From contig DAOMZT010000001.1 of the NCBI GenBank assembly GCA_035400625.1, positions 120,001 to 152,000 of the forward strand: a stretch of DNA of 32,000 nucleotides, written 5' to 3'. Below the pieces are notes generated by a model. The model searched no databases. It was not told where the DNA came from and saw only the letters and a list, made by a program, of their open reading frames with translations. Origin of the DNA: an archaeon (GTDB taxonomy: Archaea; Iainarchaeota; Iainarchaeia; Iainarchaeales; CSSED10-239). Of the stretch, positions 1-28,031 are shown piece after piece (position 1 is the first letter of the stretch; each line of letters starts with the position of its first letter). Made by a program: the position numbers and the translations under genes.

Positions 1-44
1 CCTAGAGAACTAGAAGCAACTAGATTAACAATTTTATATTCCAT
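1..44 (-). CDS. tbp: TATA-box binding protein, first 15 codons only (gene runs off the left edge)
   Basis: Reverse complement of 1-44 reads MEYKIVNLVASSSLG. I-V-N-[IL]-V-A-S is the hallmark start of the first TBP repeat. Only 15 residues are visible, so this is tentative. Confidence 0.4.
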   Translation of the reverse strand, partial: MEYKIVNLVASSSL

Positions 45-2293: not shown

Positions 2294-3271
2294 TTAAGTA
2301 ATTATTTTCTCTAATTCCTCTTTTGTTGGAAGATATAACTTATATTTTGAAACAAAAAGATTATTTGTTATTCCTCCAAAAGCATACTTTACAAGTAAAT
2401 CGTTTTTGTCTGCAGAAAGAACAATTCCTATCGGTTGATTGTCTTCAGGGCCATTTTCTTCTTCTTTAAAGTAATTAAGATACATGTTCATTTGTCCAAT
2501 ATCTGAGTGATTTACTTTGCCTGTTTTTAAATCTATTAATATAAAACATTTTAATATCCTATGATAAAATACTAGATCAATATAATAATCAACATTATCT
2601 AAAGTAATCCTATATTGTCTTTTAACAAAAGTAAATCCTTTGCCTAATTCTAAAAGAAATTGTTGTAATTTATTTATTATTTTTGTTTCTAGTTCTTTTT
2701 CTGATAATTTGTAATTTTCAGAAATATTTAAAAATTCCAAAATATATGGATCTTTTATTATGTCTTTTGGTTTTTCTATTAGTTGCCCACAATTTGACAA
2801 TTGCTTTTTTGTTTTATTTTTTGTAGAAATTAATCTATAAAACAATCCAGAATCAATTTGGCGAGACAATTCTCTTATAGACCAATTTTCTGAAATACAT
2901 TGTTTTTCGTAAAATGATCTTTCCTCTATGGAATCCACACCTATTAACTGTATGTAATGTGACCAACTTAATTTGGCAGACACTGTCTGCCAATTTTCAT
3001 ATGTTAAATAAAATCTTCGCATATCCGAAACATTTCTGCGAGAAAATCCTTTGCCATATTTAGATTTAAGATCTTTTGATAAACTATCTAAAAGATTAGA
3101 ACCGTATTCTGCTTTTTCTTTGCCTTCTTGCTCATACTCTACTATTTTTCTTCCTATTTGCCAGTAGGTTTTAAGTAATATACTATTTACAGAAACAACT
3201 GCTTGTCTTCTTCCTTGTTCTAAAATATTTCCAATATTAGTTATTAGACCAGAATATAATCTTGAAGTCAT
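2294..3271 (-). CDS. DUF1016/YhcG-family PD-(D/E)xK nuclease domain protein
   Basis: 325 aa. LSWSHYIQL motif, and C-terminal GKGFTFVKRQYRITLDNVDYYIDLVFYHRILKCFILIDLKTGK (D...D-x-K restriction-endonuclease-like core) typical of DUF1016. Convergent with ksgA with only 3 nt between the stop codons. Confidence 0.8.
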   Translation of the reverse strand: MTSRLYSGLITNIGNILEQGRRQAVVSVNSILLKTYWQIGRKIVEYEQEGKEKAEYGSNLLDSLSKDLKSKYGKGFSRRNVSDMRRFYLTYENWQTVSAKLSWSHYIQLIGVDSIEERSFYEKQCISENWSIRELSRQIDSGLFYRLISTKNKTKKQLSNCGQLIEKPKDIIKDPYILEFLNISENYKLSEKELETKIINKLQQFLLELGKGFTFVKRQYRITLDNVDYYIDLVFYHRILKCFILIDLKTGKVNHSDIGQMNMYLNYFKEEENGPEDNQPIGIVLSADKNDLLVKYAFGGITNNLFVSKYKLYLPTKEELEKIIT

Positions 3272-6565: not shown

Positions 6566-7503
6566 GAGCCATTTTTAGAAAAAATAATTAGTAATATTAA
6601 AATTACAAGAACCCCAAACAAAACATAAGTAAAACTACTAGATTTTGCTTTTGAAAAACTTAAAAAGCCAGTTGCTGATTTTGGTTTTTCTGTTATTGAT
6701 ATGCTTTGATTTTGGTTTTTTATTTCTTTTAAAACATCGCCAGTATATCTTAACTTAATCTCTGGTAGCTCTTGAGAAACATAGGAATTATTTAGTTTAC
6801 AAGAAACAAAGTAGTCACCTGACTTTAAATCCTTGGCTTTAGGGTCAATTGATAGCTTTATATCTGTTTTTCCTGGGCCTTGATATTTTTGTTCAACAAC
6901 TATTGCTTCATTGCTTGTTAAACAAGATAATGCAAGAGTGGAGTTATCTTCCATTTTTGTATATACAGAAATAACATCATAATCTTTTAAACCATTAATT
7001 ACTGCAACGCTTCTTGACATTGAATAGCCAGTATATCTTGGCTCTGAGTGTGTCTTTGTATATTCATAATAATTATTTGAATTGTTTGGTATGATTTTTA
7101 GATATAGGACTTTTGTGAATAAGAGATTATTATAATTATCAAAGACCTCTGCTTTTATTTGAAGATTTGCTGTTTGTGTTAATTGTTTAGTATTAAGATA
7201 AATTGTTTCTGTATTTGAAAAATTGTTTGTAAAAAATATTTCTGTGTTTGAGAGTTGAATATCTAGGCCTTTTATGTCTTTTAAAAATTTATAGCTATAA
7301 ACAATCTTTCCATCTTTTATTTCTTCAGATTTAAAATCATAGCTTACACCAAAGTTTATTTCTCTTGTTGAATAATTAGAGACATAGTAACCGTTTGTGC
7401 CAATGTCTGCAGGAGTTAACATCTTTAAGTCATTAGCAAAAACTGATGGAGCCATGCTTAAGAAAAATCCAATAAATAACAATAACAAGGTGTTCTTTTT
7501 CAT
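6562..7503 (-). CDS. secreted, C-terminally membrane-anchored protein of unknown function
   Basis: 313 aa. N-terminal signal peptide (MKKNTLLLLFIGFFLSMAPSVFA/ND), beta-rich N/Y/S/T-rich body, C-terminal TM (FTYVLFGVLVILILLIIF). Starts 40 nt downstream of the serpin on the same strand. Confidence 0.6.
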   Translation of the reverse strand: MKKNTLLLLFIGFFLSMAPSVFANDLKMLTPADIGTNGYYVSNYSTREINFGVSYDFKSEEIKDGKIVYSYKFLKDIKGLDIQLSNTEIFFTNNFSNTETIYLNTKQLTQTANLQIKAEVFDNYNNLLFTKVLYLKIIPNNSNNYYEYTKTHSEPRYTGYSMSRSVAVINGLKDYDVISVYTKMEDNSTLALSCLTSNEAIVVEQKYQGPGKTDIKLSIDPKAKDLKSGDYFVSCKLNNSYVSQELPEIKLRYTGDVLKEIKNQNQSISITEKPKSATGFLSFSKAKSSSFTYVLFGVLVILILLIIFSKNGS

Positions 7504-7543
7504 TATATAATTATAGAAAGTTAGTGCTTTTAAAGGTATGGAT

Positions 7544-8806
7544 TTATGCAGAAGGATTAGTTATCCTTCCCATAAACAAAATAGCGCCTGTGCTGTTTTC
7601 TCTTATAAAGAAAATGAACGGATGATCTGCATTAAAGACAAACCCCGCGGATGCCATTCTATCCATCATAACAACAGTTGCAGCTGTAGCTTCTGTGCCT
7701 TGCTCATCAACTTTTATAAAGGCTTTATGTAATATATTTGAAATATATAGATCTTTGGTACCTGTCATCTTTGAGAAATCAGCATTTTCTGTAGAAAAGG
7801 CATTGACCATTCCCAACTCTTTAAGCGGTTCAACAACTCTTGTTGATTTTTCAAACTCTAATTTTGGCAAATATATTTGATCTACTTTAGTTAATCTTAA
7901 GTTTTTTGTCCACTCGTTTAGTTTTTCAAAATCCATATCCTTTTCTAGATTGCTTAAGCCATATTCTTCTTTTGGCAAAAGAACAACCATAGAAAGCTCT
8001 TTGTCTTTATATGGTAATTCCAAAACCTGAAGATTATCATTTTCATAATAATTAAAATTTTCTTTTTTTGGGGCCATAAACATCATTGGAACTTTAATTG
8101 TTCCAGTAGGTGCTTTAAAATCCCTATTTTGTGTATCTTTTTTGTCAAATTCAACTTCCCATTTGCCTTTAAAATAAATTGCATTTGATATTACTAGTCT
8201 TGTTAAAGGGTTTAATTCACCAGAAGGGATAATATTTTTTATTCTGTTATTTGTTTGTTCTTCAATAAATTTGTTGATTGTGTTTCTGGACAATTCTGTT
8301 TCATTTATAAAATCAAGATTAACTGCTTTGCCTCCATAATATTTCTCAACATTTGAAAAATAAGAATCTAGAAATTTATAGTCTTTTTGTGCCCAAAGAG
8401 CATTTCCTGTTCTTAGCTCATATCGCTTATCTTTTTTGTTTATTCTGTTATATAGTTCAGCAAAATTAGGTCTTAAGACTTCATTTTCTGGAAAATAAAA
8501 CACATCTTTCATTTGCTGAGCAGTGGTTCCGTCTGCTCCTTCATAGGTCATGGCCAATGCTGAGAAAATGCTATATGAAGAAAAGAAAATATTGTTGTTT
8601 TCTGTTGTTGCTACTTTTTTGTAAAGGTCAATATTAAATTTGTTATTTGAAATAACAACTTGAGAAAGCCCATCTGGTGTTGAACCTTCTGAATTAACCG
8701 AAGGCGGGCTCGTTGGATTATAGGGCTTTAGAAAAACAACCGCCCCTGCTGTTGCTGCGCCAACAAACAACAATACAAACAATATAATTAATATTTTTTT
8801 ATTCAT
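7544..8806 (-). CDS. serpin (serine protease inhibitor) with N-terminal signal or anchor
   Basis: 420 aa. NIFFSSYSIFSALAMTYEGADGTTAQQM, NAIYFKGKWEVEF, hinge DEQGTEATAATVV, and FNADHPFIFFIRE...ILFMGRITNP are all canonical serpin blocks. AAGGAG SD upstream. Confidence 0.9.
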   Translation of the reverse strand: MNKKILIILFVLLFVGAATAGAVVFLKPYNPTSPPSVNSEGSTPDGLSQVVISNNKFNIDLYKKVATTENNNIFFSSYSIFSALAMTYEGADGTTAQQMKDVFYFPENEVLRPNFAELYNRINKKDKRYELRTGNALWAQKDYKFLDSYFSNVEKYYGGKAVNLDFINETELSRNTINKFIEEQTNNRIKNIIPSGELNPLTRLVISNAIYFKGKWEVEFDKKDTQNRDFKAPTGTIKVPMMFMAPKKENFNYYENDNLQVLELPYKDKELSMVVLLPKEEYGLSNLEKDMDFEKLNEWTKNLRLTKVDQIYLPKLEFEKSTRVVEPLKELGMVNAFSTENADFSKMTGTKDLYISNILHKAFIKVDEQGTEATAATVVMMDRMASAGFVFNADHPFIFFIRENSTGAILFMGRITNPSA

Positions 8807-8912: not shown

Positions 8913-9002
8913 CGCAAGGGATGGGATTTGAACCCATGTGCGTTTTTAAGACGCATCTAGTTTTCGAGACTAGCACCTTCAACCAGACTCAGTCACCCTT
9001 GC
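8913..9002 (-). tRNA. tRNA-Ser (anticodon CGA), class II with long variable arm
   Basis: Minus strand: acceptor GCAAGGG/CCCTTGC plus discriminator G. Anticodon stem CTAGT/ACTAG with loop CTCGAAA. Variable arm TGCGT-CTTAAAA-ACGCA. T arm ATGGG-TTCAAAT-CCCAT. 90 nt, no encoded CCA. Confidence 0.9.
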
Positions 9003-9328
9003 TTATATAATAAATCGTTTATGATCTTTAAAAGATCAGATAACATTTGCTTAGCAATTTTTTCCTGAATAGTGTCCCTTATAATTATCTTTAGAGATGA
9101 AAAAATAGTTATTGTTCCTTTCTTTGTTTTTAGAACTACTAAAAATGGAGAATTGTCTTTTTCTATATAATAATTTTTAGTTCTTATTTTCATTAATAAT
9201 TTTTCAAGATCAATCTTTATCGGTTTTTTTGGATAAAACTCAAAACCTGGCGTGGCTTTACAGCTATCCAAAATAAAAGAATCTACACTTAATGATTTTT
9301 CTTCTTTTTTCTTAAGTAGGTTTAACAT
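8993..9328 (-). CDS. small protein resembling a single TBP-fold repeat, function unknown
   Basis: ORF track starts at a GTG (9337). The first ATG is at 9328 with an AGAGTGA SD-like sequence just upstream, 11 nt after the ATPase stop. IDLEKLL...PFLVVLKTKKGTITIFSSLKIIIRDTIQEKIAKQMLSDLLKII resembles the TBP repeat hallmark (..LIFSSGK[ILMV]V.TGAK.....A...), compared from memory. The last 10 nt overlap tRNA-Ser(CGA). Confidence 0.55.
   Translation of the reverse strand: MLNLLKKKEEKSLSVDSFILDSCKATPGFEFYPKKPIKIDLEKLLMKIRTKNYYIEKDNSPFLVVLKTKKGTITIFSSLKIIIRDTIQEKIAKQMLSDLLKIINDLLYKQG
9026..9034 (-). promoter_or_regulatory. putative TATA box for tRNA-Ser(CGA), embedded in the upstream CDS
   Basis: Minus-strand CTTTTAAAG lies at -24 to -32 from the mature tRNA 5' end. 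tRNA-Ser(UGA) has a similar element at the same spacing. TATA-like strings are common in this AT-rich DNA. Confidence 0.35.
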
Positions 9329-9339
9329 ATATTTCACTC

Positions 9340-11913
9340 TTATGAATCAATGATCTGGCCAATTACAGCATCAACATAAATTTTTCTTTCGTTTGCTCTC
9401 TTGTCTTTGGAGACTATATCCCAAAGAGGCCAGAAGATCTCTGTTATTTCTGTTATCTCTATATCTGGCCATAATTTTTCTAGCCTATTTACAATAATTT
9501 CTTCAGATATTTCTTCTTGAATATCAGATTTGGAAATTAATTGTTTCTTTAATGGCAATTGGTTGATAGAAGTAAGAATTTCATATTCAGGAGCAAAAGG
9601 CAAATCTATTCTTCTCTTTATTCTAAAGCTTTCTTTTTTATTAATAATATCAACATCTGCAAGATTCCTATCAACTAAAGAAATCAAATCTTGTTTTATG
9701 ACCTTTGCATCATTCTCTAGAATCTCTGATAATTCTTGTGCCGTCTTCCATGCATAAATATTATCTAAAAGAACAAGATCATCAACACTTAACTCCTCAA
9801 CAAGCTTAAAGCCATTTGAGGATTTAAAATTTCTGCCATCAAATTGCAAAAACTCTCCAGAAACAGAATCAATAAAACAGGTTGATGGCTTGTAGTTTTC
9901 ATCTTTATCAAAAATATTAAAATTAATCTTGTAAACTTTTCTATAAATCATTGTAATTTGAGAGATAATTTCTTCTTCTTTTAAAAATAAAAATCTTTTT
10001 TTGTTTGTGCTTTTGGCAATATTGATTGCTATGTCTCTTGAGATTCTTGATGTAATTACAGGCACTGTATCAGGTTCTAGGTCTTCAGTAGGTAGTGGCA
10101 TTTCATCTGATGTTTCTGAAAGCTCATTTGACCTTTCAATTGCTTGGTTGATTGTTTGAATTTCTTCTTTTGGGATTTGTGCTTTTTCTCTTTTTGTTTT
10201 TTCTGCAAATAAAAGGACCTTATCTTTTTCTATAACACCCATCTTGCTTAGAGAAACTAAAATCTCATTAAAGGTCACATCACTATTATATTTAGAATTA
10301 ATGACATCTAGAATGTCCTTAGCATCACTTGTTTTTAAGGTTCTTGAAGACAATAACTTTTTGTAAATCATGTCTGAGCAAAAATTAATTATTTCTTTTT
10401 TGGAAAGCTTAGGCACCTCTCTAATTGTCTCTGCATCTCTGCCTTCGTGTTGGCTTAGTCTTGGCTTGATCTTTAAAATAAATGCTCTTTTGGTTTCTTC
10501 GCCTCTGTCTCCAGTTAAAGCAACACCAACAGGAAGAGTCTTAATAAAATTAGGGTCTTTATAGGCATCAGGAATTATAGCTGGCATTCTTTTTTGAACA
10601 GCGTGAATATCATCATTAAAGACTAATTTGTGGCTTATAAAAATATCAACTTGAGATAAAACTTTGGAATTGATTGCTGATGGTTGCTGTGTTGCTAGAA
10701 CCATGGAACAGCCTGGTCTTCTTCCTTGCTTAACATATTCTACGATGGCGTTAGTTGCAGGAGTGATTGTGTTTCCTGAAGGAATCAATGTGTGGGCTTC
10801 ATCTATATACACCCATGTTGGAGGAATAGATATCTCTAATAACTCATCTGGGCTTTCTGAAGCAGAATCTAATTTTTTAATAGCATCTTGTCTTGTCACT
10901 AGCTTTCTTGCTGAAAGTATTCTTCTTGCAAGTATGCCTATGACTAGAGCTGTAATATTATCATCTAAAAAACTAGTATCAAGTATTGTTAATTGCTTTT
11001 CTTTTGATAGCTTTGATAATGGAGTACCATGATCACTGAAAATACCCCATGATTTTGCTGCCTCAAATCTTGAAACTAATGCTCTTATGGAGTCTTGTTT
11101 ATATCCTGAAGAAGAAGATTTAAACTCATAGGCATTTTGCAAACAAAAAATAATATCATCTAGAGTATAGAGATTGCCTTTTGCTGGAATCTGCTCTATT
11201 GTTCTTTCTTGGTCGTTTGGATCTCCTGCCTTGTAACCGTTCTTAACAAAGGACAATGTCTTTTCTAACAGCAAACCTGTTGGATTAAACCTGTCAATTC
11301 CAAAGGTTAGGCACCAATCATCTGTAAGTAGCATAGAAGGATACATAGAAAAAGTTTCATCATATGTTTCTTTAGAAACTTTTCCAGTAACGCCTTCAGG
11401 CACAAAGACTTTTAGGTTGTCTAGACCTCTTGGCTTTTGCCCCCATTTTTCTAATTCTTCTATTTCTTTTTTTTCCTGATTTGGAAATCTCATTGACCAA
11501 AAAACCCCGACTGGATCAACAACTATTTGGCCGATATAAGGGTTATTGGTTGCAAGCTCTTCAGCAATAACACCAAGACCATAGCTTTTACCTGAACCTC
11601 TTGAACCATCAATAAATACGACATGTGGGTTTAAGCCATCTAGATAAACCTTCTTATCTCTTAAGTCATCTTCATAGACCTTACCAAGAAAAGCACAAGA
11701 TTTTGAACCATGTTCTTTTAGAACTGATTTTTTTCTTCCAATATAAACTATTGAATCATCATCAGGATCTGTTAAAAATTCAAGTTTGGGAGTGATCTCT
11801 TTTGAGATATTTGTTTTTTTTGGTTTTTCAGAAGCAGACTCATAGATGCTTTTGTCTTTCTCTATCTTATCAAAAGGATCTGTTCCATCACTTTTTGTTT
11901 TTATGGTAGCCAT
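9340..11913 (-). CDS. HerA/FtsK-superfamily (DUF87-type) P-loop ATPase with a long duplicated C-terminal extension
   Basis: 857 aa. Walker A GSRGSGKS (aa 103-110, nt 11584-11607). Walker B VYIDEAH (aa 368-374, nt 10792-10812). LATQQPSAINSKVLSQVDIFISHKL and KPRLSQHEGR are typical of the HerA/DUF87 core and its C-terminal end. Residues about 500-857 are extra. Confidence 0.85.
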   Translation of the reverse strand: MATIKTKSDGTDPFDKIEKDKSIYESASEKPKKTNISKEITPKLEFLTDPDDDSIVYIGRKKSVLKEHGSKSCAFLGKVYEDDLRDKKVYLDGLNPHVVFIDGSRGSGKSYGLGVIAEELATNNPYIGQIVVDPVGVFWSMRFPNQEKKEIEELEKWGQKPRGLDNLKVFVPEGVTGKVSKETYDETFSMYPSMLLTDDWCLTFGIDRFNPTGLLLEKTLSFVKNGYKAGDPNDQERTIEQIPAKGNLYTLDDIIFCLQNAYEFKSSSSGYKQDSIRALVSRFEAAKSWGIFSDHGTPLSKLSKEKQLTILDTSFLDDNITALVIGILARRILSARKLVTRQDAIKKLDSASESPDELLEISIPPTWVYIDEAHTLIPSGNTITPATNAIVEYVKQGRRPGCSMVLATQQPSAINSKVLSQVDIFISHKLVFNDDIHAVQKRMPAIIPDAYKDPNFIKTLPVGVALTGDRGEETKRAFILKIKPRLSQHEGRDAETIREVPKLSKKEIINFCSDMIYKKLLSSRTLKTSDAKDILDVINSKYNSDVTFNEILVSLSKMGVIEKDKVLLFAEKTKREKAQIPKEEIQTINQAIERSNELSETSDEMPLPTEDLEPDTVPVITSRISRDIAINIAKSTNKKRFLFLKEEEIISQITMIYRKVYKINFNIFDKDENYKPSTCFIDSVSGEFLQFDGRNFKSSNGFKLVEELSVDDLVLLDNIYAWKTAQELSEILENDAKVIKQDLISLVDRNLADVDIINKKESFRIKRRIDLPFAPEYEILTSINQLPLKKQLISKSDIQEEISEEIIVNRLEKLWPDIEITEITEIFWPLWDIVSKDKRANERKIYVDAVIGQIIDS

Positions 11914-11996: not shown

Positions 11997-12590
11997 TTAA
12001 TATCTTCTAAGCTTATCTATGCCAAGAGAGATCATTTGCTTATGCATGCTTTCTGTTAGCTCTATGTCTTTTCTTAGATATTTTTCTATTTGTTTTTTGC
12101 CATCGGCCTTGTCCTCTTGAAAACAAAGACGAGAAATGTCTTTTGCTTCATTTTCGTCTAACTCAATCCCCATAGCTCTACCAAAGTCTTTAAGACTGCC
12201 TCTTGTCTTTCCTATTCTAAAAAAAGAAATTAAATCTCTTAGATCAATAATTTCGTTACCAGATATTGGAAGAACACTTACTTTGTTGATAAAACTTCTG
12301 GTGATTAAAAAAGACATATCAAAGCTTAAAATATTAAAGCCAACAATTCTTAGGCTTGTGCCATTTCCTCTTAATTTTGAAATTGTTTGCCACATTTCTT
12401 CTAGAAGTTTTTTTTCATTATCGTCTTGAAGAATGATTGTATCTTTGCTATCAGAGTATTTTAGGCCAATAGCAACAATCCTTGAATCTATTGGATTAAG
12501 CAATTTTAGCTTTGCTTCTTCATCTTCTAAAGACTCATAAAGTTCTTGATCAATTGGGCAAGTTTCAATATCAAGATATAAATAGTTCAT
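11997..12590 (-). CDS. standalone DEDD 3'-5' exonuclease, PolB-exonuclease-like (COG3298/DNA_pol_B_exo2-like)
   Basis: 197 aa. ExoI YLDIETCP (D7, E9), ExoII IVGFNILSFDMSFL (D91), ExoIII EKYLRKDIELT (Y171, D175). No polymerase domain. Confidence 0.75.
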   Translation of the reverse strand: MNYLYLDIETCPIDQELYESLEDEEAKLKLLNPIDSRIVAIGLKYSDSKDTIILQDDNEKKLLEEMWQTISKLRGNGTSLRIVGFNILSFDMSFLITRSFINKVSVLPISGNEIIDLRDLISFFRIGKTRGSLKDFGRAMGIELDENEAKDISRLCFQEDKADGKKQIEKYLRKDIELTESMHKQMISLGIDKLRRY

Positions 12591-12669: not shown

Positions 12670-12900
12670 TTATTTTAGTCTTTGGTTTCTGTAAATTTTA
12701 GCTATTCTTTCCTGAACAAACCCTATTTTGTTTCTTTCAGACATTAGCCTTTCATAGACTTCTTTTGGGACTTTGTGGTATTGGTAAATATAGCCTAATC
12801 TATATTCTATCTCTAATATCTGACTATCAGGATCATAGCCAATTGATACTAAATTTCCTATCAATCTAGAGTCTTTGCCATCTACTGGTTGTCTTTCCAT
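12670..12900 (-). CDS. KTSC domain protein
   Basis: 76 aa. IGYDPDSQILEIEYRLGYIYQYHKVPKEVYERLM matches the KTSC pattern (..y....L.v.F..G..Y.Y..VP..vy..l). GGAGAAGG SD upstream. Confidence 0.75.
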   Translation of the reverse strand: MERQPVDGKDSRLIGNLVSIGYDPDSQILEIEYRLGYIYQYHKVPKEVYERLMSERNKIGFVQERIAKIYRNQRLK

Positions 12901-14912: not shown

Positions 14913-14918
14913 GAAAAG

Positions 14919-15001
14919 CGCAGAGGACGAGATTCGAACTCGCGTAGTCTTGCGACTCTAGCTTTCCAGGCTAGCGCGTTTGACCACTCCGCCACCTCTG
15001 C
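14919..15001 (-). tRNA. tRNA-Ser (anticodon GGA)
   Basis: Minus strand: acceptor GCAGAGG/CCTCTGC plus G. Anticodon stem CTAGC/GCTAG with loop CTGGAAA. Variable arm AGTC-GCAA-GACT. T arm GCGAG-TTCGAAT-CTCGT. 83 nt. Confidence 0.9.
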
Positions 15002-15723: not shown

Positions 15724-15785
15724 AATTTATCTTCTGTGTTTTTTAAGAATTGCTTTGGAATGTAAAACAAACAATAGTTTGTAAG

Positions 15786-15868
15786 CGCAGAGGACGAGAT
15801 TTGAACTCGCGTAGTCTTTCGACTCTAGCTCTCAAGGCTAGCGCGTTTGACCACTCCGCCACCTCTGC
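15786..15868 (-). tRNA. tRNA-Ser (anticodon UGA)
   Basis: Same scaffold as tRNA-Ser(GGA), differing at 4 positions. Anticodon loop CTTGAGA. T arm GCGAG-TTCAAAT-CTCGT. 83 nt. Confidence 0.9.
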
Positions 15869-26405: not shown

Positions 26406-28031
26406 ATGAGCAGAAAGAGAAACACAATAATTGCTGTAATCATTACTTTTATTATAATCTGTGTATTTGTCCTTATTTTTATGTATTCTAAAAAGCAAAA
26501 AGAAGAAGAAATGTGGAACATGGCATTAAATGCGATAAGTGATGAAGAACTTGAATATGAATTAAGTATTGAAATTCCACCAGAAAATCTGTTTAATGAT
26601 GAAACAAAAGATAATTTTGAAAAACTTATGGTTGTTGAAGACATAACAGATAACAAAGTAAAAGAAACAAACACAAAAAATAAATTAACAGGGTTAGTGG
26701 GAGCAAATAATATAAATAATATAATAAATATAAAAAGTGAAAAAAAGGAATTAAAACTAAAAAATAAAATATCTTGGGAAGATTATTACACACCAGGGCA
26801 TCGCCAAGAGTGTAGGCGTTGTGCGATAATGTCTACTGTTGCTGCATTAGAAGCGTATTTTAATAAAAAATATGAATTAGAACCAAAAATAAGTTTATCT
26901 AGACAATATTTAACATCTTATACAGATTTTTCAGGGTGTACTGGGAGATATACTTTATATTATATTAATTCAGTAACACTCAATGGAAAAAATGATAATA
27001 TAGAAACCAGAAATGAAAATTTAAAAAATAAAATTAAAAATGAGATTGATATTGCAGACCAATTTTATAAAAATTCAAAAAAATTAGAATCAAAACATCT
27101 AATGACAAGAACACAATATAGCATTGCTGCAGGAGAAGTGCCTTTTGGTATACCGAAAAATGAGCAATTGCCTTGTGTCCACTATGATGCTTGCGAAATT
27201 GTAAAAATTGACCCTGAAAATCCTGATTTTGCAGTAACAGGAATGGACTTAAGAATATTTGATGAAATTTATTTAAAACAAAAAGATTTTAAAGACAATT
27301 GGGAAGAGAGAAGAAAAACAATACTTACAAAAGAATTTTGCGCAGATAGAGGAGATAAAAAAAACAATAAATTTACCACACTTAAAAGAAATGATGATTT
27401 TGAAAAAATATTTGTGGAAAACTATTTTAAAATAGATAATTCTAAAGATAGCGCAACAACAATAAGATTAATCAAAGAAGCATTAGAAGTTTCTCCATTA
27501 GTAGTAAGAGCGCCTTTTTTTGAATCTATAAGAAAATATCAAGAAGGTGTTTGGGAACAAAAAACAGATGATAATAAAGAAAAATCTTATCATTGTTGGA
27601 TTATATCAGGATGGGGTGTTGAAGAAAATTCGGGAAGAGAATATTGGATATTAAAAAATAATTGGAGTGATAATTGGGGAGACAAAACATTTATGAGGGC
27701 TTGGATAAATGATCCGGCACTAAATATAGAAAAACAACCAATTTACGGATTTTCTGGAGAGATGGTCACAATTCCTGGAAAAGAACTTAACAAATTATTA
27801 GATGAGGTCAAAGAAGAGAAAAAATATAAAAAGGCAGAAGATTTATTTCCTAATACAATTTCGCCAACACCAGACAATATTAATGATACTGACTCAATAA
27901 TAAAAGAAGACACATCTAACAAATACCAAAATACAAGATATATCTCAGACAACAAATGCACAACAATCGTAAGTTGTATATATGATAAGTTAGCTGTGTT
28001 TTATACAGATAAACAAAATGAGTTTAGTTAA
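26406..28031 (+). CDS. membrane-anchored papain-like (C1 family) cysteine peptidase
   Basis: N-terminal TM IIAVIITFIIICVFVLIFMY. Q-E-C-R-R-C-A block (C-x2-C as in papain C22/C25). His block SYHCWIISGWG. Asn/Trp block ILKNNWSDNWGDKTFMRAW (compare KNSWG..WGE.GY.R). Confidence 0.8.
   Translation: MSRKRNTIIAVIITFIIICVFVLIFMYSKKQKEEEMWNMALNAISDEELEYELSIEIPPENLFNDETKDNFEKLMVVEDITDNKVKETNTKNKLTGLVGANNINNIINIKSEKKELKLKNKISWEDYYTPGHRQECRRCAIMSTVAALEAYFNKKYELEPKISLSRQYLTSYTDFSGCTGRYTLYYINSVTLNGKNDNIETRNENLKNKIKNEIDIADQFYKNSKKLESKHLMTRTQYSIAAGEVPFGIPKNEQLPCVHYDACEIVKIDPENPDFAVTGMDLRIFDEIYLKQKDFKDNWEERRKTILTKEFCADRGDKKNNKFTTLKRNDDFEKIFVENYFKIDNSKDSATTIRLIKEALEVSPLVVRAPFFESIRKYQEGVWEQKTDDNKEKSYHCWIISGWGVEENSGREYWILKNNWSDNWGDKTFMRAWINDPALNIEKQPIYGFSGEMVTIPGKELNKLLDEVKEEKKYKKAEDLFPNTISPTPDNINDTDSIIKEDTSNKYQNTRYISDNKCTTIVSCIYDKLAVFYTDKQNEFS

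Follow-up and report, generated by a model that had tools for sequence, protein, structure and literature searches.

What does a single TATA-box binding protein (TBP) repeat do when it is encoded directly behind a motor ATPase? The question was raised by a stretch of 32,000 nt from an archaeon of the Iainarchaeota (positions 120,001 to 152,000 of contig DAOMZT010000001.1, assembly GCA_035400625.1), here called the window. An initial annotation, made from the letters alone, had placed a short gene for a single-repeat TBP-like protein at 8993-9328, next to a HerA-type ATPase. The assignment of this small protein to the TBP fold proved solid. A function was proposed from gene context and by analogy.

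The small gene and its boundaries

The three elements at the centre of the locus were as follows.

8993..9328, minus strand: 111-aa stand-alone TBP-domain gene (from the open reading frame (ORF), homologue N-termini, Pfam TBP and the ratio of nonsynonymous to synonymous substitution rates (dN/dS))
9329..9339, minus strand: 11-nt spacer GAGTGAAATAT between the ATPase stop codon (TAA, 9342-9340) and the small-gene ATG, read from the sequence
9340..11913, minus strand: 857-aa HerA-family ATPase (from DUF87, PDB HerA sequences, AlphaFold2 (AF2) and Foldseek)

The mechanically called ORF spanned 8993..9337 (minus) and gave 114 aa from a GTG at 9337. The N-termini of the close homologues all read MLNLL in the alignment, and the start was therefore set at the ATG at 9328 (111 aa), which is where the initial annotation had put it. 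The spacer carries a Shine-Dalgarno-like GAGTGA, 5 nt ahead of this ATG.

The stretch 8993..9328 is a real gene under purifying selection, with a dN/dS of 0.07-0.14 against four relatives of 77-86% protein identity. The searches produced 59 close homologues and about 60 clusters at 50% identity. The family members are about 90-120 aa long and come mainly from Iainarchaeota/Diapherotrites (DPANN archaea). The names attached to the relatives were Candidatus Iainarchaeum, Diapherotrites and Ca. Forterrea, all of them DPANN archaea. The window itself has a G+C content of about 30%, and its housekeeping genes include those for L21e, Rpo4, KsgA, exosome subunits, prefoldin and CTP synthase.

Database versions of 123 aa (P0001, P0003-P0005, P0014, P0024 and P0030) read the TGA stop as Trp and continue for 12 codons into the adjoining tRNA-Ser gene (...YKQGWLSLVEGASLEN). 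They were rejected as a longer form of the protein, being TGA read-throughs into the tRNA gene. These calls look like a gene-calling artefact, in which a low-GC contig was translated with an alternative genetic code.

The small protein as a single TBP repeat

9005..9220, minus strand: TBP-repeat core, aa 37-108, with H1, S2-S5 including the motif ITIFSSLKIIIRD, and H2 (from PF00352, PDB profile matches, AF2 and Foldseek)

The small protein matched the Pfam TBP family (PF00352) at E=2e-5, with 24.8 bits against a gathering score of 22.9. The match spanned aa 40-108 (in the numbering of the 114-aa ORF) and profile positions 15-84 of 85. The same family was matched at E<=0.1 by 30 of the 36 diverse family members. 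When the single sequence was searched against the PDB, TBPs appeared at E about 0.3 only, which was insufficient alone. The family profile, built from the wide alignment A2, was decisive. With it, 35 TBP sequences ranked ahead of all else, and the best match was the TBP of M. jannaschii (2z8u, E=7e-12), with both repeats aligned.

The AF2 model, computed from a 30-sequence alignment, had a predicted local distance difference test score (pLDDT) of 88.3 and a predicted template modelling score (pTM) of 0.80. Its elements (beta18-22, beta28-33, alpha41-50, beta54-58, beta63-67, beta72-76, beta81-84 and alpha89-108) fit the S1-H1-S2-S3-S4-S5-H2 order of TBP, with an extra strand at 18-22. The top Foldseek matches of this predicted alpha/beta fold in the PDB were nearly all TBPs; for 1ais_A, the probability was 1.00 and the query template modelling score (TMq) 0.55, over 81 columns at a root mean square deviation of 2.7 A. 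RNase HIII N-domains (2d0a and 3vn5 among the matches) were ranked below the TBPs. The small protein is a divergent homologue of a single TBP repeat, as the initial annotation had claimed.

TBP and the small protein have in common the H1-S2-S3-S4-S5-H2 core layout and the strand motif IFSS-x-K-I-I-I. On the other hand, TBP has two repeats in about 180 aa, whereas the small protein has one repeat, an extra Cys-hairpin and a place in an operon with a motor ATPase. A second repeat is absent from its 111 aa, which gave one Pfam match. The gene is flanked by the stop codon of the ATPase and by a tRNA gene, and therefore there is no room for one.

The strand motif of archaeal TBP is LLIFSSGKLVV, and the strand pair of the small protein, ITIFSSLKIIIRD, closely resembles it. 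The alignment agreed with the earlier observation that the Gly of SSGK is replaced by Leu and the TGAK turn by RDT. This Leu is fixed in the window's clade, and the wider family keeps F-x-SGK-I-x-VK. Alignment to the TBP of E. cuniculi showed that F76 and K80 are retained, and that the first TBP Phe position falls on Asn59. Mapped through the same alignment, F76 and K80 correspond to F116, a kink-inserting Phe, and K120, a phosphate-contacting Lys, of yeast TBP. Six lysines were invariant or nearly so in the window-clade alignment.

The N-domain of RNase HIII (DUF3378, PF11858) is likewise a single TBP-like domain; it is fused to an RNase H catalytic domain, whereas the small protein is free-standing. 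Matches to DUF3378 below threshold were found in 8 of the 36 family members (best 6.6e-6). The window protein scored E=0.042 and 14.5 bits against a cut-off of 27, and has no catalytic domain. Since DUF3378 remained below the cut-off, some of the database entries named 'ribonuclease HIII' are mis-annotated. The finding of the TBP domain corrects this name as well as 'TATA-box binding protein' and 'ArsR family metal-binding transcriptional regulator', which are also given to family members. No NCBIfam model was found as the source of the last of these, a JGI name; only TBP models and weak MoeB/ThiF matches came up.

The TBP of the organism itself

1..44, minus strand: first 14 codons MEYKIVNLVASSSL of a canonical two-repeat tbp, with its ATG at 44, running off the left edge of the window

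The initial annotation had recognised a genuine tbp here, and the minus-strand ATG is indeed at nt 44. At the equivalent position, a 180-aa PF00352 TBP is encoded in L042 (2213-2755, minus) and in L043, contigs that have an identical L21e gene. The canonical tbp is placed divergently from the L21e-Rpo4-DUF655-KsgA cluster. Because a canonical 180-aa TBP is encoded in the same genome, the small protein is not the general factor. This upholds the doubt that had already been expressed about such a role.

The small protein shares 29% identity over 35 aa with this TBP (E=0.096), and comparison with its profile gave E=3.4e-5. Judged from these sequences, it is an old separate lineage rather than a recent tbp fragment. 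A truncated tbp pseudogene was ruled out by the intact 180-aa TBP, the low identity and the dN/dS. That the gene is a spurious ORF or a decayed piece of the genome's tbp might be suspected from its shortness, the AT-rich genome and the overlap with a tRNA gene. This reading was rejected as next to impossible, given the low dN/dS, the many close homologues and clusters, the confident AF2 fold and the low identity to that TBP.

The N-terminal hairpin and its invariant cysteine

9221..9280, minus strand: family-specific N-terminal beta-hairpin, aa 17-36 SFILDSCKATPGFEFYPKKP (from alignments A1 and A2 and AF2)

The most conserved segment of the protein is this N-terminal hairpin rather than the TBP core, a feature overlooked in the initial annotation. 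The consensus reads F-I-L-D-S-C-K-x-T-P-G-F-E-F-Y-P-K-K, with the motif DSCKxTPGFEFYPKK. Cys23 was the sole invariant column of the wide family (36 sequences, reaching 18% identity). In the window's clade, D21, K24, T26, P27, G28, E30 and K34 were invariant besides Cys23.

The two hairpin strands, 18-22 and 28-33, were predicted by AF2 with pLDDT above 90. In the model the extra strand 18-22 pairs with strand 28-33, and Cys23 lies in the connecting loop. Strand 28-33, from its position directly before H1, probably occupies the place of S1 of TBP. S1 is the edge where the two repeats of TBP meet. With strand 18-22 on the equivalent edge, it is not obvious that a simple S1-S1' dimer could form. 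The extra strand may block or reshape any TBP-like dimer.

The upstream ATPase

10426..11778, minus strand: HerA-like N-terminal strands and RecA-type ATPase core, aa 46-496 (from invariant columns and alignment with HerA structures)
9343..10401, minus strand: C-terminal extension of the ATPase, aa 505-857 (from AF2, hhalign and Pfam matches in homologues)

The gene upstream encodes a HerA-type ATPase, in agreement with the initial annotation, with 11 nt between its stop codon and the small-gene ATG. The protein matched DUF87 (PF01935) at E=2.6e-10. Walker A reads GSRGSGKS (aa 103-110) and Walker B VYIDEAH (aa 368-374); GxRGxGKS and IDEAH were invariant in 35 ATPase homologues. The AF2 model (pLDDT 76) matched HerA structures best in Foldseek (9x1m_A, 4.9e-15, and 4d2i), over 450-530 aligned columns. 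The fold matches included HerA of Thermococcus kodakarensis and of Sulfolobus solfataricus (so named in its PDB record) and HerAs of bacterial defence systems. Before the P-loop, where an N-terminal HAS-barrel would lie, only strands 55-58, 75-79 and 88-92 were predicted, with pLDDT of about 57-81 (10-residue block means).

The C-terminal tail was predicted by AF2 to consist of a winged helix-turn-helix (wHTH) module at 505-570, an acidic disordered linker at 572-613, a PepSY-like alpha/beta module at 615-700, a second wHTH at 702-765 and a second PepSY-like module at 778-857. Comparison by hhalign (91.5%, E=8e-7) showed that the two alpha/beta modules are homologues of one another; they share a DxVxGE motif, a signature typical of PepSY domains. 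Homologues of the ATPase carry matches to PF01978 TrmB, PF09339 IclR-HTH and PF03413 PepSY. The tail is an internal duplication of a unit made of a winged helix and a PepSY-like module. PepSY-like modules with no evident signal peptide or membrane segment would be unusual. A TBP-like module inside the tail was also sought, by hhalign of A2 against each module, and was rejected (probabilities 0.5-4%).

The ATPase family has more than 697 homologues of 850-1120 aa. Among the best 120 ATPase matches, those that were named came from Diapherotrites/Iainarchaeota or from unclassified archaeal metagenome-assembled genomes (MAGs).

Conservation of the gene pair

The scan of genome loci was made with the narrower alignment A1 and covers the subfamily of the window. 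An ATPase homologue ended just upstream of the small gene in 33 of the first 34 loci that carried a family member. The pairing was seen in all 33 loci whose small gene was of the window type or of a distant ATPase-linked group (Iainarchaeota/Diapherotrites), and every one of the 18 GTDB species representatives found is among them. By the gene calls in the relatives, the small gene starts 2-38 nt past the last base of the ATPase gene, on the same strand. When the search was started from the ATPase of a complete Ca. Iainarchaeum genome, a family member was found 16 nt downstream.

The pairing also held in distant relatives. In L012/L013 the small-protein identity was 27% and the ATPase identity 42%; in L015/L016 the values were 23% (P0135) and 44%. 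The neighbourhoods of both were unrelated. Among the loci, the flanks vary (PCNA, YdjM/BacA, tRNA, a DUF3566-like gene, penicillin amidase) and the pair is constant. The ATPase and small genes are inherited together across the clade. The initial annotation had asked for a survey of the linkage, and the small gene proved to be genuinely tied to the ATPase; that the pair persists down to 23-27% small-protein identity, among unrelated neighbours, speaks for a function connected with the ATPase.

In three genomes of the distant group, a third gene follows the small gene and encodes a protein of 107-116 aa with two predicted membrane helices and a weak DUF3566 match.

L012, 5949-6275: third-gene protein with two transmembrane helices, after the small gene
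L015, 6343-6666: the same
L040, 7519-7869: the same

No homologue of this third gene was seen in the fetched loci of the window's clade.

Comparison with known systems

Stand-alone TBP domains are known from Thermococcales proteins of 82-136 aa (the monopartite group, of which P. furiosus NP_578195 is an example) and from haloarchaeal TbpA (Brindefalk et al. 2013, PMC3597702). Compared by their description in that paper, these proteins are, like the small protein, shorter than 150 aa (about 90-100 aa), made of one domain with no second half next to it, and diverged from the TBP of their host. They belong to Thermococcales and haloarchaea, whereas the present family is found in DPANN Iainarchaeota, and the Cys-hairpin and the coupling to HerA are described for the latter only. 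The words 'ATPase', 'operon' and 'gene neighbourhood' are absent from the text of Brindefalk et al. 2013. No Thermococcales names were among the 20 representative small-protein clusters that were looked up.

HerA-NurA, Sir2-HerA, DUF4297-HerA and TdpAB resemble the present locus in that a HerA ATPase gene stands beside a smaller partner gene, and the best fold matches are to the ATPase core (9x1m, 4d2i, 8xau, 9c1m). The known partners are nucleases or NADases; here the partner has a TBP fold and neither domain. The matched HerA chains are 458-673 aa long, too short for the tail of about 350 aa, with its wHTH and PepSY-like modules, that this ATPase carries. The known systems stand in a repair or defence context, whereas the present one stands in a housekeeping context. 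No NurA, Mre11 or Rad50 domain was found in the scanned window ORFs or in the called genes of related loci. The known HerA defence systems gave partial PADLOC matches to the ATPase core only, and none to the small protein or its neighbours.

FtsK combines a motor of the FtsK-HerA superfamily with a C-terminal winged-helix gamma domain for DNA recognition. By analogy, the present ATPase also joins a motor to C-terminal winged helices, and the operon of distant relatives includes a membrane protein. It differs from FtsK in that its core is of HerA type, the ATPase has no membrane domain, and no evidence of chromosome segregation was found.

Proposed function and alternatives

We propose that the small TBP-domain protein and the HerA-type ATPase form one machine, in which the small protein is an accessory subunit; the chances of this appear to us to be about even. 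The most likely role of the small protein would be that of a motor accessory subunit that binds DNA or the motor itself.

In such a machine, the HerA-type hexamer would be a nucleic-acid translocase, and the wHTH modules would recognise DNA. To our knowledge, all characterised HerA relatives act on DNA; the hexameric motor would be expected to do the same for this reason, and the wHTH modules fit. Like TBP repeats and the RNase HIII N-domain, which helps to bind the RNA/DNA hybrid substrate, the small protein may use its exposed sheet face to bind DNA or a DNA/RNA duplex. The conserved hairpin may dock the small protein on the motor, in the manner of the NurA, Sir2 and DUF4297 partners. The solved HerA complexes among the structure matches all contain a partner protein (NurA, Sir2, DUF4297 or TdpB). 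The third operon gene of the distant relatives, with its two membrane helices, hints that the machine may work at the membrane.

Support for the DNA side of this proposal is modest, and consists of F76 and K80, the invariant lysines and the wHTH modules. A more specific form of it is put forward tentatively, as a possibility: the small protein would be a free-standing TBP domain with a role other than transcription. Within a conserved and probably housekeeping HerA-type translocase of a DPANN phylum, it would be the subunit for DNA binding, DNA bending or loading. It would also be a living example of the proposed single-domain TBP ancestor. Assembly, by dimerisation or on the six-fold motor, might occur.

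Several observations weigh against a DNA-binding subunit of the motor. The invariant Cys is left unexplained by DNA binding. Net charge ranges from -2 to +20 across the family, and the near-neutral values of many members speak only weakly for a generic DNA binder. In the window's clade, the SGK Gly and the TGAK turn are lost, and the first TBP Phe has no counterpart in the sequence alignment. The ATPase of L041 (marine TARA Diapherotrites) has no family member within 4 kb. Paralogous small-protein subfamilies are found with no ATPase, by aIF5A (L014, L038) or by sulfur-transfer genes (L035-L037). The TBP domain therefore works in other settings too.

Near-neutral charge in many members and the partial loss of TBP-specific DNA-contact features would also be consistent with a small protein that binds no nucleic acid and serves as an adaptor for proteins or peptides, or as an ATPase regulator. 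Its TBP-like sheet would be an interaction platform, as in the C-domain of ZipA and the platform domains of adaptin/COPG appendages; TBP-like platform domains are known to mediate protein contacts (Brindefalk et al. 2013, PMC3597702). The operon linkage speaks for this reading just as it does for the proposed machine, and it is the surface hairpin, not the sheet, that is most conserved. However, the closest sequence relatives are DNA-binding TBP repeats, followed by RNase HIII N-domains, and F76 and K80, aligned with the presumed TBP DNA contacts, are kept. We consider such an adaptor unlikely, though it is the likeliest of the alternatives.

The invariance of Cys23, the sole invariant residue of the wide family, raised the alternative of a Cys-dependent carrier or sensor (sulfur relay, redox or metal), related to the C-terminal TBP-like domain of MoeB/ThiF, with a regulatory link to the ATPase. 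Five relatives weakly match the last ~70 residues of MoeB/ThiF PRK12475 (E=9e-4 to 2e-2), one subfamily stands beside aminotransferase, NifU, TusA and cysteine desulfurase genes, and some members carry the JGI 'ArsR' name given above. On the other hand, the window protein has no MoeB/ThiF match, and the similarity to TBP is far stronger (E=7e-12). Sulfur-transfer genes are not found near the ATPase-linked members, and a lone cysteine cannot make a metal site. These points render a carrier or sensor improbable.

A homodimeric 'mini-TBP' saddle, acting as an alternative promoter-binding factor or repressor, would agree with the true homology to a TBP repeat, with the retention of the sheet residues F76 and K80, and with the report that a haloarchaeal single-domain TbpA is functional (PMC3597702). 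The position next to the ATPase would then be incidental or autoregulatory. This is difficult to reconcile with a linkage to the ATPase that persists at 23-27% identity and among unrelated neighbours. Neither the TGAK turn nor the SGK Gly is kept, the extra strand lies on the equivalent of S1, the repeat-pairing edge of TBP, and there is no TFB-like partner nearby. We regard such a saddle as a poor candidate.

An anti-virus defence system built on HerA, with a small partner of a novel kind, was suggested by weak, partial PADLOC HerA and mad8 matches of the ATPase core (best 4e-18) and by the recently solved bacterial HerA complexes, all of which are defence systems. The small protein, however, has neither a PADLOC match nor an enzymatic effector domain. 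Each fetched locus has the pair at one place, with housekeeping genes around it; the pair is present in all 18 representative genomes, and the divergence of the two genes tracks together, a pattern unlike that of a defence island. A defence or viral origin was rejected as very improbable, PADLOC and PHROGs giving nothing for the small protein and generic core matches for the ATPase.

Paralogues and neighbouring genes

The aIF5A-linked paralogue (L014, 5521-6294; L038, 5600-6282) has an intact SGK and lies 5-78 nt after aIF5A, with no ATPase. The block consists of DUF2226, a ParA/MinD-like gene and LSM, followed by aIF5A and the small gene, and forms a second conserved pair. In L035-L037, from Thermoplasmata/Euryarchaeota MAGs, the gene of a third subfamily overlaps the end of a pyridoxal phosphate-dependent aminotransferase gene by 4 nt. 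It is convergent to genes for NifU, TusA and a class-V aminotransferase (cysteine desulfurase-like, IscS). The sulfur-gene neighbours, together with the invariant Cys, hint at a sulfur-transfer role for this subfamily. After the ATPase homologue of L041, a 209-aa, very Cys-rich, acidic protein is encoded at 7133-7762.

The tRNA genes of the window that lie within 7 kb around the operon were the following.

8913..9002, minus strand: tRNA-Ser(CGA), called by ARAGORN
14918-15001, minus strand: tRNA-Ser GGA
15785-15868, minus strand: tRNA-Ser TGA

The same tRNA-Ser trio stands beside the ATPase operon in L006, L009 and L024. The first 10 nt of tRNA-Ser(CGA) overlap the last three codons and the stop of the small gene, the last codons (Q-G-stop) forming part of the acceptor stem. 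An overlap of 7-11 nt is retained in relatives to about 60% protein identity (L006, L009, L017-L020, L022 and L024). If a joint transcript of the small gene and the tRNA is made, cleavage by RNase P would cut off the mRNA's stop codon.

Other genes of the window were as follows.

11997-12590, minus strand: 197-aa stand-alone 3'-5' exonuclease of the PolB-exonuclease/RNase_H_2-like type, upstream of the ATPase on the same strand
12670-12900, minus strand: 76-aa KTSC-domain protein, upstream of the ATPase on the same strand
2294-3271, minus strand: YhcG/DUF1016 PDDEXK nuclease, between KsgA and an AMP-phosphorylase-like gene
7544-8806, minus strand: full-length serpin with an N-terminal hydrophobic segment (E=2.8e-120)
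26406-28031, plus strand: 541-aa protein with a papain-family C1 peptidase domain

The exonuclease and KTSC genes lie directly upstream of the ATPase. The KTSC gene adjoins the ATPase in L006 and L008 too, and the exonuclease is not found there. The YhcG/DUF1016 nuclease looks like a lineage-specific insertion, because the KsgA and AMP-phosphorylase-like genes are direct neighbours in L001 and L009; it is also present in L042 and L043. The serpin and the papain-family C1 peptidase are both uncommon in archaea.

Significance

The initial annotation had called a half-TBP coupled to a HerA-type motor unusual. The free-standing TBP domain as such is not new (PMC3597702). No published link between a TBP-like protein and a HerA-type ATPase was found in the literature, with a mention in Iyer et al. 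2004 or Burroughs et al. 2009 being possible, and the motor coupling of a stand-alone TBP domain appears to be undescribed.

Brindefalk et al. 2013 (PMC3597702) proposed a single-domain ancestor of TBP, with only a small number of uncharacterised examples, from Thermococcales and haloarchaea, to hand. The origin of the two-repeat TBP saddle is an open question, and the present family offers single-domain homologues with a concrete, testable partner. The partner ATPase is conserved across Iainarchaeota genomes of only about 0.7-1 Mb, a size at which the genes that are kept tend to be important ones. Should the two proteins act on DNA as a complex, the TBP domain would be serving a DNA motor, not transcription. 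HerA would have a new type of partner beyond nucleases and NADases, and a large, unannotated and conserved DPANN gene would be given a function.

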